Assembly: GCA_963841565.1 (NCBI GenBank)
Contig: CAWJCY010000003.1
Coordinates: forward strand, 160,001-224,000
Source: an uncultured Nitrososphaerales archaeon
GTDB taxonomy: Archaea > Thermoproteota > Nitrososphaeria > Nitrososphaerales > Nitrososphaeraceae
Length of the DNA stretch: 64,000 nucleotides
Direction: 5' to 3'
The notes under the pieces are model-generated. The model ran no database searches. It was not told the DNA's origin and was given only the letters and a program-made list of their open reading frames with translations. A program made the translations under genes and the position numbers. Positions 23,104 to 40,064 of the stretch are shown in pieces. Position 1 is the stretch's first letter. Every line of letters begins with the position of its first letter.

Positions 23104-23658
23104 CTAAGCCCGCCACCAGTCTATACCTATAAAGTATACCTGTCCTTTCCTTAGCCTAGGACATGCAAGGATGAACTGTTTCTTTACCGTAGTGGCCAAC
23201 CTTCCGCTCAGAACTATTGAAGTGGCTGTAATATTTGTTGCTGGAACGTAAACTGATATTAAAAAAGGCGCATGATCAATACCAGGTCCTCGCTCGTATA
23301 CGGCAAAGTCGCAGCCAAACTTTATCCCGGGAGAAACGATATAGCCCTTGTCTTTTAAGACCTTGAATACTAGGTACTTTGCATCAAAATTGTCATACTG
23401 CTTTCTGCACAATGTTTTAATTCTCTTGATAGAGATTGTCTTTCCGAATTTCGAAAGGATAGATAACTCTTCTCTTTCTACAAGATAACATCCTTCGATT
23501 AGGTCAAGTACTATTGGGACTTCAAAATCGATTCCTTTTGGCTTCGAGATCCCAATTGGCTTACCGTAGTAACCATTGCTGAATAAAGTACGGGATTCTT
23601 CTATATTCCAGATAATTATCCTGTTTTCGATCAGATGTCCTAAAACTGGTTTATCCAT
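23104..23658 (-). CDS. endA: tRNA-intron endonuclease, catalytic subunit
   Basis: PGIKFGCDFAVYERGPGIDHAPF (catalytic Tyr, His) and RLATTVKK (Lys); ATG overlaps the upstream TGA. Confidence 0.92.
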   Translation of the reverse strand: MDKPVLGHLIENRIIIWNIEESRTLFSNGYYGKPIGISKPKGIDFEVPIVLDLIEGCYLVEREELSILSKFGKTISIKRIKTLCRKQYDNFDAKYLVFKVLKDKGYIVSPGIKFGCDFAVYERGPGIDHAPFLISVYVPATNITATSIVLSGRLATTVKKQFILACPRLRKGQVYFIGIDWWRA

Positions 23659-24311
23659 CACATACTCAAAGCAAGTATTGTTAAAGAATCGGACGCCTCC
23701 TGACACTTGTCAGCCATACCTTCTATCCCTTCAATCGCATCTTTTAAAAGAAGTAAGTCTTTGGTTACCGATATTTCATTCATTGCCTTTATTATTAGAC
23801 TCCTATGTCTCTCATCTACCAATCTTTCCAACTTTTGAACCTCTTGGGCTAGTTCAATTGTACTTGATGGATTGATACTCAGGGCTCTTGCCATCTCATT
23901 AAGCTTGAATGTTGCATCAACAACCATACCGATCAACTCATTGATATCTTCAGCAAACCTTCCTATCATGATGATGTCAACTTTCATGTTTGCAAGCCTA
24001 AAGGCTACACCACTTATGTAACCTGCAATATCATCCATAAGATATGCCGTCCTTAGTACATCCTCTCTATACACCATTAGACTTCCAATTTCTGCGACTT
24101 CTCTGGTCACACGCCTTCTAAGATTGTCCACCTCCTCTTCTGCAATTCTCATTCTGTCCAAAGTGGGCTGAATGTCCTGAGTCAGGCCTTGTGTAATACT
24201 TTTACCTAATGAAGAAAGTTCTCTTGCAGAGTTCAAGATCTTCCCAATTTCATCGTGAAGTATAGCAAGGGTTTTCCGCTTGGCTTGAACTTCCAATTCC
24301 CCGCTATACAT
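23658..24311 (-). CDS. DUF47/PhoU-like helical protein
   Basis: EEEVDNLRR, REDVLR...MDDIA, LERLVDERHR, IEGMADKC two-repeat pattern. Confidence 0.8.
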   Translation of the reverse strand: MYSGELEVQAKRKTLAILHDEIGKILNSARELSSLGKSITQGLTQDIQPTLDRMRIAEEEVDNLRRRVTREVAEIGSLMVYREDVLRTAYLMDDIAGYISGVAFRLANMKVDIIMIGRFAEDINELIGMVVDATFKLNEMARALSINPSSTIELAQEVQKLERLVDERHRSLIIKAMNEISVTKDLLLLKDAIEGIEGMADKCQEASDSLTILALSM

Positions 24312-34885: not shown

Positions 34886-37800
34886 CTATGATTCAAAGTA
34901 CTGCCTTAGGTAATCAAAGGTAGGTGTATGAGTCCTAATCCATTCCAATGTGTCAATAAATGTGGAAGCAGATTCAACCGTAGTTAGAACAGGTATTCCA
35001 AGTTCGACCGCCTTCCTGCGTATTTGATATTCATCATCTAGCATCCCAACGTATTTCTCGATTGTAGACGTGGATGGAATATTAATGATGAAATCTATCT
35101 GACGTCTAAAAAGCATTTCTGAAATATTGGGTTTTCTGAGAGGTTCGCTAATCTTGTATACCCTTTCAACTGGGCGAATGTTGAACTTTTCAATAAAATC
35201 TGCGGTGTGTTCTGTGGCAATAATTGAGTAACCCATGTTACCGATCTTTCGTGCAAGTGGAAGGAGTCTTTCCTTGTTAATAGGTCCACCTGCCGTTATC
35301 AAAACTCTGCCACTAAGTGGCAAATTGAAACCGGCCGCAACGTAGGCTTTCGACAGCGCGTCGTGAAAACTTGATCCAAAACAGGCTACTTCTCCTGTAG
35401 ATTGCATTTCAACACCAAGAACAATATCTGCGCCATCGAGCTGCATAAAAGAAAATTGAGGAACTTTTATGCCGAAACCAGACTTTCTTAACCAAATGTC
35501 GCCACGATCAACAGGCAGTTTCTTTCCTAAGATGGCTTGAGCCGCCAAGGATATTAGATTTAGGCCGGTGAATTTTGATACAAACGGCATTGACCTAGAA
35601 GCACGGACATTGGCTTCTATTACGAATACCTGACCGTTCTTTACCAAAAACTGTATATTGAAAGGTCCTATTATCTTCATAGCCATGCCAATTCTTTTAC
35701 TGTATTCAATGATCGTTTCTATAGTTTCTCTATTTAATCTCCAAGGAGGAATGCACATCATTGCGTCTCCCGAGTGTACGCCAGCGTTGTCGATATGTTC
35801 GATAACCGAACCAATTATAACGCAATGTCCGTCTCCTACTGCATCAACTTCCACTTCTGAAGCATTCTCCAAAAACTTCGTCATAACAATTGGGTGATCA
35901 GGGCTTACGTTTGTAGCCTCAGTCAAATATTTCTCTAACTGCTCTGGGGTCCAGACAACCTTCATTGCAGCACCGCTGAGCACATAGGAAGGTCTAACAA
36001 GTAGTGGGTATTTTACAATCTCTGCAAATGATCGTGCCTCATTTATGCTCGTAAATTTTTTCCAGGCAGGCTGTCTTATACCCAACGAATCAAGTAGCCT
36101 TCCGAACTTGGATCGATCTTCGGCCTGGTCTACACTCGCGGCAGATGTTCCTACAATGTTGATATTTGCAGAGGCTAACCTTGGAGTCAGTATATTTGCA
36201 GTCTGGCCCCCAACGCATGTCACTATCCCGTCAGAATTTTCTCTTTCGCAAATGTCCATTACTCTTTCATATGTTAGTTCCTCGAAATACAAGCGGTCGC
36301 AAATATCGTAATCGGTGGAGACGGTCTCAGGGTTACAGTTAATGATCGTGACTTCTTTGCAACCATTTTCCTTTAGACCCCAAACCATATTTACAGTGCC
36401 CCAATCAAATTCTACACTACTACCTATCCTGTATGGTCCAGCGCCTAAGACTATTACCTTTGAAGGCATACCCTCAGTTCGGGGCTTGCTAGCCTTCATA
36501 TTAGATATTAATGTCTTGTTTTTTATTTTTGAATCATAGTGAATGTCATCAAATTGGCCGCCATAAGTGAGATATAGATAGTTGGTCTTTGCTGGCCATT
36601 CTGCAGCCAAAGTGTCAATCTGTTTGGTAACAGGGCGAATCATCAACTTCGTTCTTAGTGATCTTACATCAATTTCATCAATGTTAGAGCAGTTGGCAAT
36701 TTGGACGTCTGAGAATCCCAGTTTCTTTGCTTCGAGCAGAATGCTCTTATCGAGACATGAAGTTCTCAGCTTCTTCTCAGTCTTGATTATTGTTTGAACC
36801 TTGTTTAGAAACCAAGGATCTATTGATGAGAGTGAGTTAATACGCTCCACAGACATGCCCACTTTCAATGCTCTTACCACATCAAAAAGGATCTCATCTG
36901 TCGGATGCAATAGAGCTTGTTCGAAGGATTCAATGTCATAATCTCCTATACTACTATTAATATTACTATTACTATTACTATTTTTATTTCTATTACTATT
37001 TTCAGTGCCAACTCTTATTGATGAAGACAACCCTACAGTGTTATATTGTTGCGAATTTGCACCTGGACTAGGAAGATTACTCGTGTTTTCCGGCAAATTT
37101 GGATCCAAAGTATTATTAGAATCCATTCCTTCTCTTTCTATAGATTCCGAAAGTGGCTTTCTTTCCTTACCTAAATTAGTTGTACCATAACTTTTTTCGG
37201 AAATAAATGTGGAAGAAGAATTATCACCTTCTGACCCATCAATATCAATCCTAGAATTGGAAACAAGGCCATGCTTTCCATTGTCGCACATTCTGATTGC
37301 CTTTTGAAGTACCTCTTCAAAGCTTCTGCCAATCGCCATTACCTCTCCAACTGATTTCATTGTGCTGCCCAGTCTCTTTTTTACTAATTCAAATTTCTTG
37401 AAATCCCATCTAGGCATCTTCAGTACAATGTAGTCTAATGAAGGCTCAAAGCAGGCTGTGGTGGCTTTCGTGACAGTATTAACTAATTCAGGGAGCGAGT
37501 AGCCTAAACTTATCTTAGCGGCCATGTATGCTAACGGATATCCGGTAGCCTTACTGGCCAATGCTGAGGATCTAGATAACCTCGCATTTACCTCGATAAC
37601 GCAATAATTTTCTGAACTGGGGTCAAGCCCGAACTGAATGTTGCACTCCCCGATGATATCACATTTCTTGGTAGCTTTCAAAGCGGCACTGCGAAGTTTA
37701 TGATATTCGTAGTTGTTTAGTGTCTGAGAAGGAGCCACGACAATGTTATCCCCCGTGTGAACCTTCATGGCTAAAACGTTCTCCATATTACATATTATTA

Positions 37801-38513
37801 CACTGTTTCCATGGTGGTCTCGCATGACTTCGTATTCAATCTGCTTCCAAGTTCCTACGTATTTTTCAATTAGAACCTGTCGAACTACGCTAAGCGAGAG
37901 TCCTCGTTGTACTATCTCCTGCAATTCGTAATCATTATAGGCAACACCACCGCCTCGTCCACCCAATGTATAGGCCACCCTTATAATTACCGGATACCCA
38001 ATCCGTCTGGCAATTTGTTGGGACACTTCGACAGAGTTCGCTGATGAGCTTTCAAGAACTGGAAGCCCACATTCAGCCATACTATCTTTGAAAAGTTGTC
38101 TATCTTCGGTGGTTTGAATACCGGGAATTTGAGTGCCTAATACCTTTATTCCATATTTCTTGAGGATCCCATTTTTCTCCAACGCAACGCCACAGTTTAA
38201 CGCTGTCTGGCCTCCAAAACTCAACATTATCGAATCTGGTCGTTCGAGTTCTATTATATTGGTCACATAGTCAAGGTTGACAGGCAAAAGATATACTCGA
38301 TCCGCGAATCTGCTATCGGTTTGAATAGTCGCAATATTTGGATTTATTAACAGAGTGTTTATGTTATCTTCCCTTAATGCTTTGAGGCATTGAGAACCAG
38401 AGTAATCGAAATGACGGTCTTCGGTTTACCGAATGACTTTCGCCTGCTTCTCCGATTTTTATTGCCCCGCTACCAAGGACTAGAACTTTCTTGATATTTT
38501 CATGTTTTCCCAA
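34886..38513 (-). CDS. carB: Carbamoyl-phosphate synthase large subunit; join(38439..38513, 34886..38410), 1199 aa after removal of a 28-nt intron
   Basis: Exon 1 from TTG (38513, preceded by AGGAG) encodes MGKHENIKKVLVLGSGAIKIGEAGE; exon 2 starts FDYSGSQCLKAL... in frame with ORF 34886..38287; two ATP-grasp halves and an MGS-like domain. Confidence 0.93.
36952..37000. repeat. Degenerate (TATTAC)n microsatellite encoding an Asn-Ser run inside a CarB insertion
   Basis: tactattaatattactattactattactatttttatttctattactatt. Confidence 0.65.
38411..38438 (-). other. Putative 28-nt archaeal BHB-type intron in carB mRNA
   Basis: Insert AGUCAUUCGGUAAACCGAAGACCGUCAU; 4-bp helix GGCG/CGUC flanked by 3-nt bulges AAA and AUU; canonical cut sites match the frame-restoring junction exactly. 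Confidence 0.88.
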
Positions 38514-38831
38514 TTCTCCTTTTCCCCTATAAATCCCACAGCATCCCAAATAATATTATTCTGCTCCGGGTTGAATAAATCTTCAGTAATTGAAAGCTCT
38601 ACATCCAAATTTTGATGCATTTCTCAAATATCAAATCATGAAGTGTTCCATATTACTGTATTCCTTTGTCCTAAAGCTGACCGAAACTAGTTGCAGAATT
38701 GAATCGTATCACCGTATCTTCATCTTCATCTACTACAGTAATAACGACTTCCTGCTCCTGCTGCTCAAATTAGTTAACTATCTATGCCAATAAGCTGGCT
38801 CAATACCCATATTCCGACTAAAGTTAGTTTG

Positions 38832-40064
38832 TTAGGTATTGCAACTCCCATGAGGTTTGTCTCTATGAGTAGTCAGCTTGTAGCAATTCTTGATAATGTC
38901 TCTGAATCTTTCGAAGACAAACATACAATCATAAGGCCCTGGAGAAGCCTCAGGGTGAAATTGTACGCCGATGATAGGTTTGGAATCATGTTGAATTCCT
39001 TCTATGGTCTCGTCATCGGGATTGTAAAACCAAGTAGTAAAATCTGTTTTCTGTAGGCTCAATGCATCTATCCCATAGCCATGATTTTGACTCGTTATGT
39101 AGGTAGTATTGTCGTTTTTGTCGATGCAGGGCTTATTTTGTCCTCGGTGGCCGTATTTTAGCTTGTATGTTTTAGCCCCGGCTGCTAGCGCCAGAATCTG
39201 ATTACCAAGACAAATACCTAATGTAGGTATCGATTCTTCAATTAGTTTTTTGGCCGTATTGATGGTTTCTGCGCAGATCTCAGGGTCGCCTGGTCCGTTG
39301 CTTATAACGACCCCTACTGGATCATATGCCTTCAGAGAATGATAATCAATATCCCAAGGTAGCCTGACTACTGAGAATCCCAAAGATAAGATGTTACGGA
39401 CTATACTAAACTTCGTTCCGGTATCCAATAGAACTATTCTCCTCTTGTTGGAGCTTTTGATATCCTCGATAACAGGATCATAAAACTCGGCTTCTTCAGT
39501 CGAAACCTCTGGCATAAAGTTCACCCCATCATAACTTGAACGTTCAAGTCGCTCTTTTATACTAGCCAAACTTAACTTAGTCCCATGGGCTGTTGACTTT
39601 ATTTCCCCGTCAACTGCGACAGACTTTCCAGCCCTTTTTGAACTACCTATTGCGTTGACGTTTATAGCACCCATCATAACTCCGTGTGCTCTAAGTCGTT
39701 TGGTTAATTCACGTGTATCAACTCCGTATATCCCCGGTATCTTTTGATCGTATAACCATTCATCGAGGGTCCTAATAGAACTCCAATGGCTTGCACTAGT
39801 TGAAAGATTATGAACAATCAATCCTCTGACCTGAATGGACATAGATTCGAAAAATCTAGGAAGTCCGAATTCATCTTTTAAGTTGAAATCAGGGACACCA
39901 TAGTTTCCAATCAGTGGATATGTTAGGCATAAAATTTGGCCTCTGTAAGAAGGATCTGTTAGTGTTTCAGTATATCCTACCATGCCCGTGTTAAAAACTA
40001 CTTCCCCTTCCACGTATGTTGGGTACCCAAATCCGATGCCCCTCATCGTCAATCCATCCTTCAA
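38832..40064 (-). CDS. carA: Carbamoyl-phosphate synthase small (glutaminase) subunit; N-terminus probably extends upstream of 40064
   Basis: GEVVFNTGMVGY.E.LTDPSY.GQI, SNGPGDP, GICLGNQ, GHRGQN, SQNHGY, QFHPEASPGP. Confidence 0.95.
   Translation of the reverse strand: MKDGLTMRGIGFGYPTYVEGEVVFNTGMVGYTETLTDPSYRGQILCLTYPLIGNYGVPDFNLKDEFGLPRFFESMSIQVRGLIVHNLSTSASHWSSIRTLDEWLYDQKIPGIYGVDTRELTKRLRAHGVMMGAINVNAIGSSKRAGKSVAVDGEIKSTAHGTKLSLASIKERLERSSYDGVNFMPEVSTEEAEFYDPVIEDIKSSNKRRIVLLDTGTKFSIVRNILSLGFSVVRLPWDIDYHSLKAYDPVGVVISNGPGDPEICAETINTAKKLIEESIPTLGICLGNQILALAAGAKTYKLKYGHRGQNKPCIDKNDNTTYITSQNHGYGIDALSLQKTDFTTWFYNPDDETIEGIQHDSKPIIGVQFHPEASPGPYDCMFVFERFRDIIKNCYKLTTHRDKPHGSCNT

Follow-up and report, generated by a model that had tools for sequence, protein, structure and literature searches.

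This analysis concerns carB, the gene for CarB, the large chain of the core pyrimidine/arginine enzyme carbamoyl-phosphate synthase, in a 64,000-nucleotide (nt) stretch of DNA from an uncultured Nitrososphaerales archaeon; the window, as used below, is that whole stretch. The gene lies on the minus strand and its reading frame is interrupted by 28 nt (Table 1). An earlier note on this DNA had placed the insert at 38411-38438, where it splits the motif GEAGE/FDYSG, and the minus strand at the junction reads as stated there: ...ATC GGA GAA GCA GGC GAA AGTCATTCGGTAAACCGAAGACCGTCAT TTC GAT TAC TCT GGT.... The upstream part of the carB frame translates as ...KKVLVLGSGAIKIGEAGE. The likely start is a TTG with AGGAG 3 nt upstream of it, and the coding product of exon 1 from this TTG is MGKHENIKKVLVLGSGAIKIGEAGE; exon 1 led by TTG or ATG is also found in relatives. 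Exon 2 contains the domains CPSase_L_D1, D2, and D3 plus MGS (Pfam). The spliced CarB would have 25 + 1174 = 1199 amino acids. The unspliced frame stops at 38364 and gives 49 amino acids from the TTG, a claim of the note that is confirmed by the open reading frame (ORF) 38364..38549, and the first in-frame start within exon 2 lies 41 codons past FDYSG (ORF 34886..38287).

This is the sole carB of the genome, the next match being a distant ATP-grasp protein of 28% identity; a second intact carB, which the note had raised as an objection, was not found in this 88%-complete assembly of 13 contigs. A repeat or mobile element was considered for the 28 nt and rejected, as the sequence occurs once in the genome and the next-best matches are no longer than 11 nt. 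Rfam gave 0 matches on 38000-38900 at E values up to 1. As argued below, it is highly likely that the 28 nt constitute an archaeal bulge-helix-bulge (BHB) intron in the carB coding sequence, and that splicing by the endonuclease EndA and the ligase RtcB is needed for the 1199-residue CarB.

Table 1 Positions of carB, its intron and the predicted fold, the upstream genes, and the EndA-family genes
Feature	Position	Strand	Description
carB exon 1	38439..38513	minus	TTG start 38513-38511 plus 24 codons; ends ...IKIGEAGE
carB intron, 28 nt	38411..38438	minus	AGUCAUUCGGUAAACCGAAGACCGUCAU; predicted cuts 38439/38438 and 38411/38410
carB exon 2	34886..38410	minus	FDYSGSQCLK..., 1174 amino acids plus stop codon (stop at 34886)
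Central helix H, 5' strand	38441..38444	minus	GGCG (Gly codon GGC plus G of GAA); pairs with 38413-38416
Central helix H, 3' strand	38413..38416	minus	CGUC, intronic; pairs with 38441-38444
5' bulge	38438..38440	minus	AAA; cut predicted after second nt, 38439/38438
3' bulge	38410..38412	minus	AUU; cut predicted after second nt, 38411/38410; third nt is base 1 of the Phe codon
Intron stem-loop h'	38417..38437	minus	GUC/GAC, bulged A, UUCGG/CCGAA, loop UAAA; pair probability 0.99
Exon-exon pairing	38396..38456	minus	A38445-U38409, internal loop, AUCGGAG (38456-38450) with CUCUGGU (38402-38396)
carA (small subunit)	38832..40064	minus	Directly upstream of carB, same orientation; Pfam CPSase_sm_chain and GATase
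ORF, 279 amino acids	40268-41107	plus	Upstream of carA, opposite strand; no Pfam match at E 0.001
EndA-family gene (tRNA_int_endo, PF01974)	23104..23706	minus	Match 23152-23388, 88.9 bits; presumed splicing endonuclease subunit
Second EndA-family gene (PF01974)	contig C7, 35814-36068		81.8 bits

Distribution and history of the insert

A search for carB in 61 genomes (the window's own and 60 relatives) found the gene in 60. An insert lies between GEAGE and FDYSG in all of the first 30 loci; the window's genus accounts for 13 of these, other genera of its family for 16, and a second family for one. Another 30 genomes from more distant parts of the order divide into 16 with the insert and 14 without, and 80 named species representatives from a public genome collection into 68 with and 11 without, one locus (L113) having been dropped as too short. 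Overall an insert lies at exactly this codon boundary in 114 of 139 carB 5' regions of the order and the other 25 are contiguous; the two genome sources share some genomes, and there are 102 distinct sequences that have the insert and 25 that lack it. One genome of the window's genus (G013, locus L004) is unpublished and is counted in the same-genus tally, in one row of the alignment called A2 below, and in one row of the tree; a public record identical to it (L066) is also in the set. An order-wide search of 301 genomes, for which 150 of 539 matches were listed, was not used for the tally of intron states.

The inserts range from 17 to 52 nt, the commonest lengths being 21 nt (37 regions), 22 nt (28 regions), and 28 nt (18 regions, the window's own genus). 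None of them can be read through, because 66 of the 114 are not multiples of three and the remaining 48 have an in-frame stop in every case (48/48). The intron is found in both Nitrososphaeraceae and Nitrosopumilaceae, its named carriers including Nitrososphaera, Nitrosocosmicus, Nitrosopolaris, Nitrosotenuis, Cenarchaeum, Nitrosomaritimum, and some Nitrosopumilus, with the complete genome of Candidatus (Ca.) Nitrosotenuis chungbukensis MY2 among them. The named genomes that lack it are ten Nitrosopumilus-like genomes and one Nitrososphaera metagenome-assembled genome (MAG). Two members of a single genus (g27 of family f10), genomes G060 (locus L064) and G045 (L065), differ by a clean 22-nt gap at the site. 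Note that the 140-residue carB query was unmatched in 19 of the 46 genomes of this genus that were searched. In one Nitrososphaeraceae subclade (L125, L136, L139, and L087) the loop has grown to 38-52 nt and is A/U-rich, with the BHB core kept. A contig labeled Heimdallarchaeota (L135) is identical to Nitrosopumilaceae in both its carB 5' region and its 21-nt intron, and on the tree it clusters with these; its label is probably a binning error.

The window's genome is a draft (13 contigs, 88% complete), which would leave room for an assembly or sequencing artefact or for a decaying carB pseudogene. The chance of either is virtually nil. All 13 genomes of the genus, each assembled independently, have the insert, as do many other genera, and it stands unchanged in contigs from public runs. 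The frame of exon 2 runs uninterrupted through 1174 codons, no second carB is found, and both exons are apparently under protein-level constraint. We take artefact and pseudogene to be excluded because the insert is conserved and the gene is single copy. Nor is carB a dead gene, for it has no other copy in the genome and the protein sequence that exon 1 encodes in its own frame is conserved.

The history of the insert was followed on a quick maximum-likelihood tree of the first 591 nt of exon 2 (109 rows, unrooted), on which the intron state changes five times, three of the changes being forced by well-supported branches. The count was unchanged when the first 45 columns were omitted. Intron-less rows (one Nitrososphaera, seven Nitrosopumilus that form a clade, and three that stand singly) are nested in intron-bearing clades, and intron length tracks carB clades. 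Gain and loss are not formally separable because the tree is unrooted; one old gain followed by several precise losses would be the simplest reading, and the intron appears to be old, vertically inherited, and precisely lost a few times. A bolder proposal, which we consider rather unlikely, is that the intron came from the common ancestor of the soil and marine ammonia-oxidizing archaea, with obligate splicing, and has been retained as a control point of carB or as a conserved homing target across archaeal phyla. Were the intron ancestral and obligatorily spliced, a core pyrimidine/arginine enzyme would have been made dependent on the enzymes of transfer RNA (tRNA) splicing, and BHB introns in protein genes would be far commoner than the single textbook case.

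The patchy presence of the intron within genera could also be explained if the BHB mini-intron belongs, or once belonged, to a two-part mobile cassette, in which a free-standing homing endonuclease cuts intron-less carB at the conserved GE/FDYSG site and the insert, besides protecting the allele, spreads along with the endonuclease. This proposal, which we judge distinctly improbable, is about how the intron arose and has persisted and leaves its splicing aside. No endonuclease gene was found by Pfam among the neighbors of carB, and carA is directly upstream. In 29 of 29 relatives with carA in the locus the distance from the end of carA to FDYSG is 101-445 nt, exon 1 and intron included, which is too short for an endonuclease gene. 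Moreover, the tracking of clades by intron length and the nesting of intron-less rows fit vertical descent with losses. A mobile cassette may still fit a distant origin.

Predicted fold, cut sites, and covariation

The pairings and bulges that the earlier note had named in the window (GGCG/CGUC, AAA, AUU, the stem, and AUCGGAG/CUCUGGU) are all present. In the cbf5 introns the cuts fall between the second and third bulge residues (PMC2738675). By the same rule, 38438..38411 and nothing else would be excised here, and GAA would abut UUC. Cuts placed in this way restore Glu-Phe and the 1199-residue frame, as the note had held, and the predicted product GEAGE/FDYSG is what all 25 intron-less alleles encode. 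The junction-spanning tryptic peptide predicted for the window's genus is IGEAGEFDYSGSQCLK.

Alignments anchored at the protein-defined borders (95 distinct sequences) place the central helix at a constant position: its exon strand, GGCG, ends two bases short of the exon 1 border, and its four-base partner ends two bases short of the intron's 3' border. Standard pairing holds at the four positions in 82, 95, 95, and 95 of the 95 sequences. At the first three positions of the stem it holds in 94, 95, and 94 of them, with UA/CG/UG and CG/UA/UG/AU as alternatives, and the bulges read ARA on the 5' side in 91 of 95 and ANU on the 3' side in 94 of 95. In a separate test, a specified structure was scored on A2, a MAFFT alignment of 101 distinct regions. 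Paired cells made up 92.8% of the total versus 86.4% in shuffles, none of 500 of which came up to this value, and a shift of the partner by 1-3 columns left 22-47% paired. Both sides have changed in 7 of the 18 A2 pairs; five of these belong to the intron stem, which has six pairs, and one to the central helix. The latter (columns 19-22 with 72-75) is 96.8% paired, and in two sequences C:G is replaced by U:A, the Gly codon being GGT. When RNAalifold was given the alignment and no structure it returned the same H helix, 3-nt 5' bulge, and stem. The same-site inserts with covarying helices that the note had proposed to look for among relatives are therefore found, in the right register, the inserts being present in the 114 of 139 regions given above. 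The carB insert is a real, conserved intron of the relaxed BHB kind.

Codon usage on the exon side differs with intron state. The amino acids of the last eight exon 1 codons are kept in 97-102 of the 102 distinct intron-bearing sequences, the variation being synonymous. The Gly codon that lies in H is GGC in 100 of these 102 sequences, and the other two have GGT together with a compensating A in the intron. Of the intron-less sequences, 22 have Gly at this codon, and none of them uses GGC (GGA 11, GGT 6, GGG 5). The distal exon helix (AUCGGAG with CUCYGGU) is 96.5% paired with almost no double changes; it hardly covaries because both of its strands are coding. Its codons likewise differ between intron-bearing and intron-less sequences: ATC in 95/102 versus 7/25, GGA in 97/102 versus 5/24, and TAC in 99/102 versus 9/25.

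Several observations weigh against a spliced BHB intron, some from the fold and the phylogeny and others from the RNA data of the next section. In the window sequence the BHB fold has an energy of -13.0 kcal/mol and lies 3.4 kcal/mol above the minimum free energy (MFE) structure at -16.4, which pairs CGAAA with UUUCG, and the four H pairs have an ensemble probability of about 0.21. The 62-nt stretch folds like its shuffles (z -1.42, with 21 of 200 shuffles at least as good). Unconstrained MFE folds of the 101 relatives have the first three stem pairs in 97 cases and all four H pairs in only 63, and in 13 of 101 rows a G.A takes the place of the first H pair. Beside the 3' bulge the exon-side helix has just one pair, A-U, before mismatches set in; across the 101 rows this pair is A-U in 68, G-U in 11, and unpaired in 22, and the C.C/C.U and G.G mismatches come next. 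The relatives are not independent, and the link of GGC to the intron reduces to three well-supported contrasts (five on all branches); all contrasts agree in direction, yet the sign test gives p = 0.25, as three independent contrasts are too few to reach significance. The more-than-chance case for a BHB motif comes from the comparison of relatives, not from fold energy.

The exon-side helix also determines the class of the motif. The core, two 3-nt bulges with a 4-bp helix between them, is present, with its four pairs standard in 86-100% of the 95-101 distinct sequences compared and in that register only. A strict hBHBh' motif has at least two Watson-Crick pairs in both outer helices, by the definition in the cited part of PMC7714728. 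Here h' is present, its stem pairs showing covariation, and h is absent, so the strict definition fails at the exon-side helix. The motif is of the relaxed, HBh' kind rather than canonical, and the word 'canonical' in the earlier note was too strong.

Splicing enzymes, transcripts, and database proteins

The gene content of the genome supplies an RNA ligase and an endonuclease of a kind expected to accept relaxed motifs. The EndA-family gene at 23104-23706 is about 15 kb from carB, a second one lies on another contig, and there is one RtcB ligase in the genome (568.9 bits). The two PF01974 genes are consistent with an alpha-beta heteromer, judged by family membership. An (alpha-beta)2 EndA that accepts relaxed motifs is ascribed to Thaumarchaeota in the cited passages of two papers (PMC5829648, PMC4090602). 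ARAGORN called introns in 14 of the 39 tRNA genes of the genome, some of them doubtful; two introns over 1.1 kb and one tRNA-SeC look like over-calls or unusual genes. The presence of amoA identifies the organism as an ammonia oxidizer, as the note had supposed. The archaeal metK family was not found in this 88%-complete genome. Taken together, the site, the covariation, the cuts, the single copy, and the EndA and RtcB genes have answered every sequence-level prediction that follows from the BHB-intron reading put forward in the note.

EndA and RtcB very probably splice the carB messenger RNA (mRNA), to judge from these genes and the conserved motif. In the pathway that we propose carA and carB are presumably co-transcribed, and in the pre-mRNA the GGCG at the end of exon 1 would pair with CGUC at the 3' end of the intron to form the 4-bp helix between two 3-nt bulges, with the intron's own hairpin closing the 5' bulge. 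The heteromeric EndA would then cut after the second nucleotide of each bulge, and RtcB would join the exons as ...GGC GAA/UUC GAU... to give the 1199-residue CarB with an intact GEAGEFDYSG. CarB synthesis would depend on splicing, since the unspliced message would yield only the 49-residue peptide. The cleavage and ligation steps themselves, like any function of the intron beyond being tolerated, are what we infer from sequence.

The RNA evidence consists of Logan contigs from four public runs at a depth of about 2-5, most of the stretch being uncovered in most runs. No spliced joint was seen in these four low-depth runs. One contig from a true RNA library covers 38261-38460, intron included, with 0 differences; it may represent pre-mRNA or carried-over DNA. 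Contigs from a run of uncertain kind are intron-bearing forms of relatives.

These RNA data, taken at face value, would agree with translation in the absence of splicing, either by ribosome bypass or frameshift over the insert, or by synthesis of CarB from an internal start and hence lacking its first 66 residues. The hairpin directly after the last exon 1 codon also recalls bypass. In the bypass of T4 gene 60 a hairpin follows the take-off codon, and matched take-off and landing codons flank the gap. However, none of the 101 distinct sequences here has matched take-off and landing codons, the inserts differ in length (17-52 nt), and the pattern of covariation is that of a 4-bp helix plus 3-nt bulges, not simply that of a hairpin. 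An internal start would lie 41 codons past FDYSG, and yet exon 1 and the FDYSG region are conserved at the protein level. We give translation of the unspliced message a very small chance and retain splicing of a BHB intron as the explanation.

Spliced or contiguous junctions were also looked for in sequence collections. A degenerate scan of a metagenome collection for the exon junction returned at least 120 stretches, and 78 of the 80 loci fetched had a match. Matches longer than 28 residues were at most 60% identical to exon 2 of the window, and alignments of 22 and 28 residues were 64% and 75% identical. Because their identity to exon 2 is low, these loci come from other organisms. Database fragments from the window's own genus (P0150-P0152, P0163, and P0176) all begin downstream of the junction. 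A contiguous junction is seen in several short database proteins that are close to intron-bearing lineages (P0196, P0187, P0199, P0191, P0025, and P0012). P0196 matches L019 at 25/25 residues of exon 1 and at 98.8% over 82 residues of exon 2 by BLAST (82/97 ungapped); for P0187, which comes from the assembly of a public run, the figures against L089 are 24/25 and 96/100, and for P0199 against L104 they are 21/25 and 73/76. Such proteins may derive from spliced complementary DNA (cDNA) or from further intron-less strains. The P0012 cluster includes a Nitrosotenuis MAG protein, which suggests a further loss of the intron.

The expectation in the note that annotation pipelines would miscall carB was borne out by truncated or false N-termini in intron-bearing genomes. 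P0021 has a false N-terminus, MELLRSEKQAKVNYNDRY, before FDYSG. In RefSeq, P0119 from the complete genome of Ca. Nitrosotenuis chungbukensis is a 345-residue 'ATP-grasp domain-containing protein' that starts with MLINPN. Five carB annotations from intron-bearing genomes (P0021, P0119, P0019, P0027, and P0039) have faulty N-termini; false ones are about 18-20 residues long and come from the wrong frame of exon 1 plus intron, and others begin at an internal Met. Metabolic reconstructions may score carB as broken owing to these false or truncated N-termini.

Relation to known introns, and other features of the locus

A BHB intron in the cbf5 pre-mRNA of Crenarchaeota (Desulfurococcales and Sulfolobales) is said to have been described by Watanabe in 2002 and by Yoshinari in 2006. 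The cbf5 and carB introns are alike in being short, in lying in coding sequence, and in having a relaxed BHB motif cut (for carB, by prediction) between the second and third bulge residues, as far as the cited part of Yokobori 2009 (PMC2738675) describes the former. The hosts are also alike in their hetero-oligomeric EndA and in gain or loss among close relatives, within the same portion of the literature. The two differ in host gene, carB encoding a metabolic enzyme and cbf5 an RNA-modification enzyme, and in host, mesophilic ammonia oxidizers versus hyperthermophiles. The cbf5 intron has cDNA evidence, whereas the carB intron is known here from sequence comparison. The intron described here is not of the cbf5 type, which lies in cbf5 at the catalytic Asp codon, since its host gene is carB; cbf5 itself (TruB_N) is uninterrupted in the window's genome, and a table in the cited part of PMC2738675 gives 0 cbf5 introns for Cenarchaeum and Nitrosopumilus.

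Archaeal tRNA and ribosomal RNA (rRNA) BHB introns share with the carB intron the 4-bp helix, two 3-nt bulges, a stem closing the 5' bulge, and similar sizes, and the same enzymes are expected to process them. Unlike those introns, the carB intron lies in mRNA with coding exon strands and a weak, codon-constrained exon-side helix, and its removal must restore a reading frame. A further parallel is the intron of Haloferax volcanii HVO_1309, which is an EndA substrate in mRNA, as the carB intron is predicted to be; however, it lies in the 5' untranslated region rather than in coding sequence, and it was demonstrated by in vitro cleavage and endA knock-down, according to the passages cited (PMC7714728).

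The same 2020 paper states, in the part cited, that cbf5 of Crenarchaeota is the only protein-coding sequence reported with a BHB intron (PMC7714728), and the reference list of a 2025 paper, the part of it relied on here, cites only cbf5 work (PMC12397907). Full-text papers, from a collection with few subscription journals, yielded no account of an intron in carB, nor of one in any other protein gene of ammonia-oxidizing archaea. The carB gene is a new host gene, and its carriers a new lineage, for a known kind of intron. If the intron is as we describe it, it provides a second protein host gene, one for a central metabolic enzyme, in mesophilic and globally abundant nitrifiers. It would also be an intron widespread in its order (114 of 139 regions examined) with natural intron-less controls inside the same genera, and a comparison of cultured strains with and without it could show directly what effect, if any, an archaeal mRNA intron has.

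The remaining genes near carA and carB, besides the 279-residue ORF of Table 1, include a phosphoesterase (Pfam). At residues 385-495 or so of CarB exon 2 (window about 36926-37258, minus strand) there is a low-complexity insert of about 110 residues, rich in Ser, Asn, and Gly with NSNSNS runs, which sits between the first ATP-grasp domain and the oligomerization domain. The open frames are 1150-1190 residues long in the window's genus versus about 1055-1100 residues in other genera.

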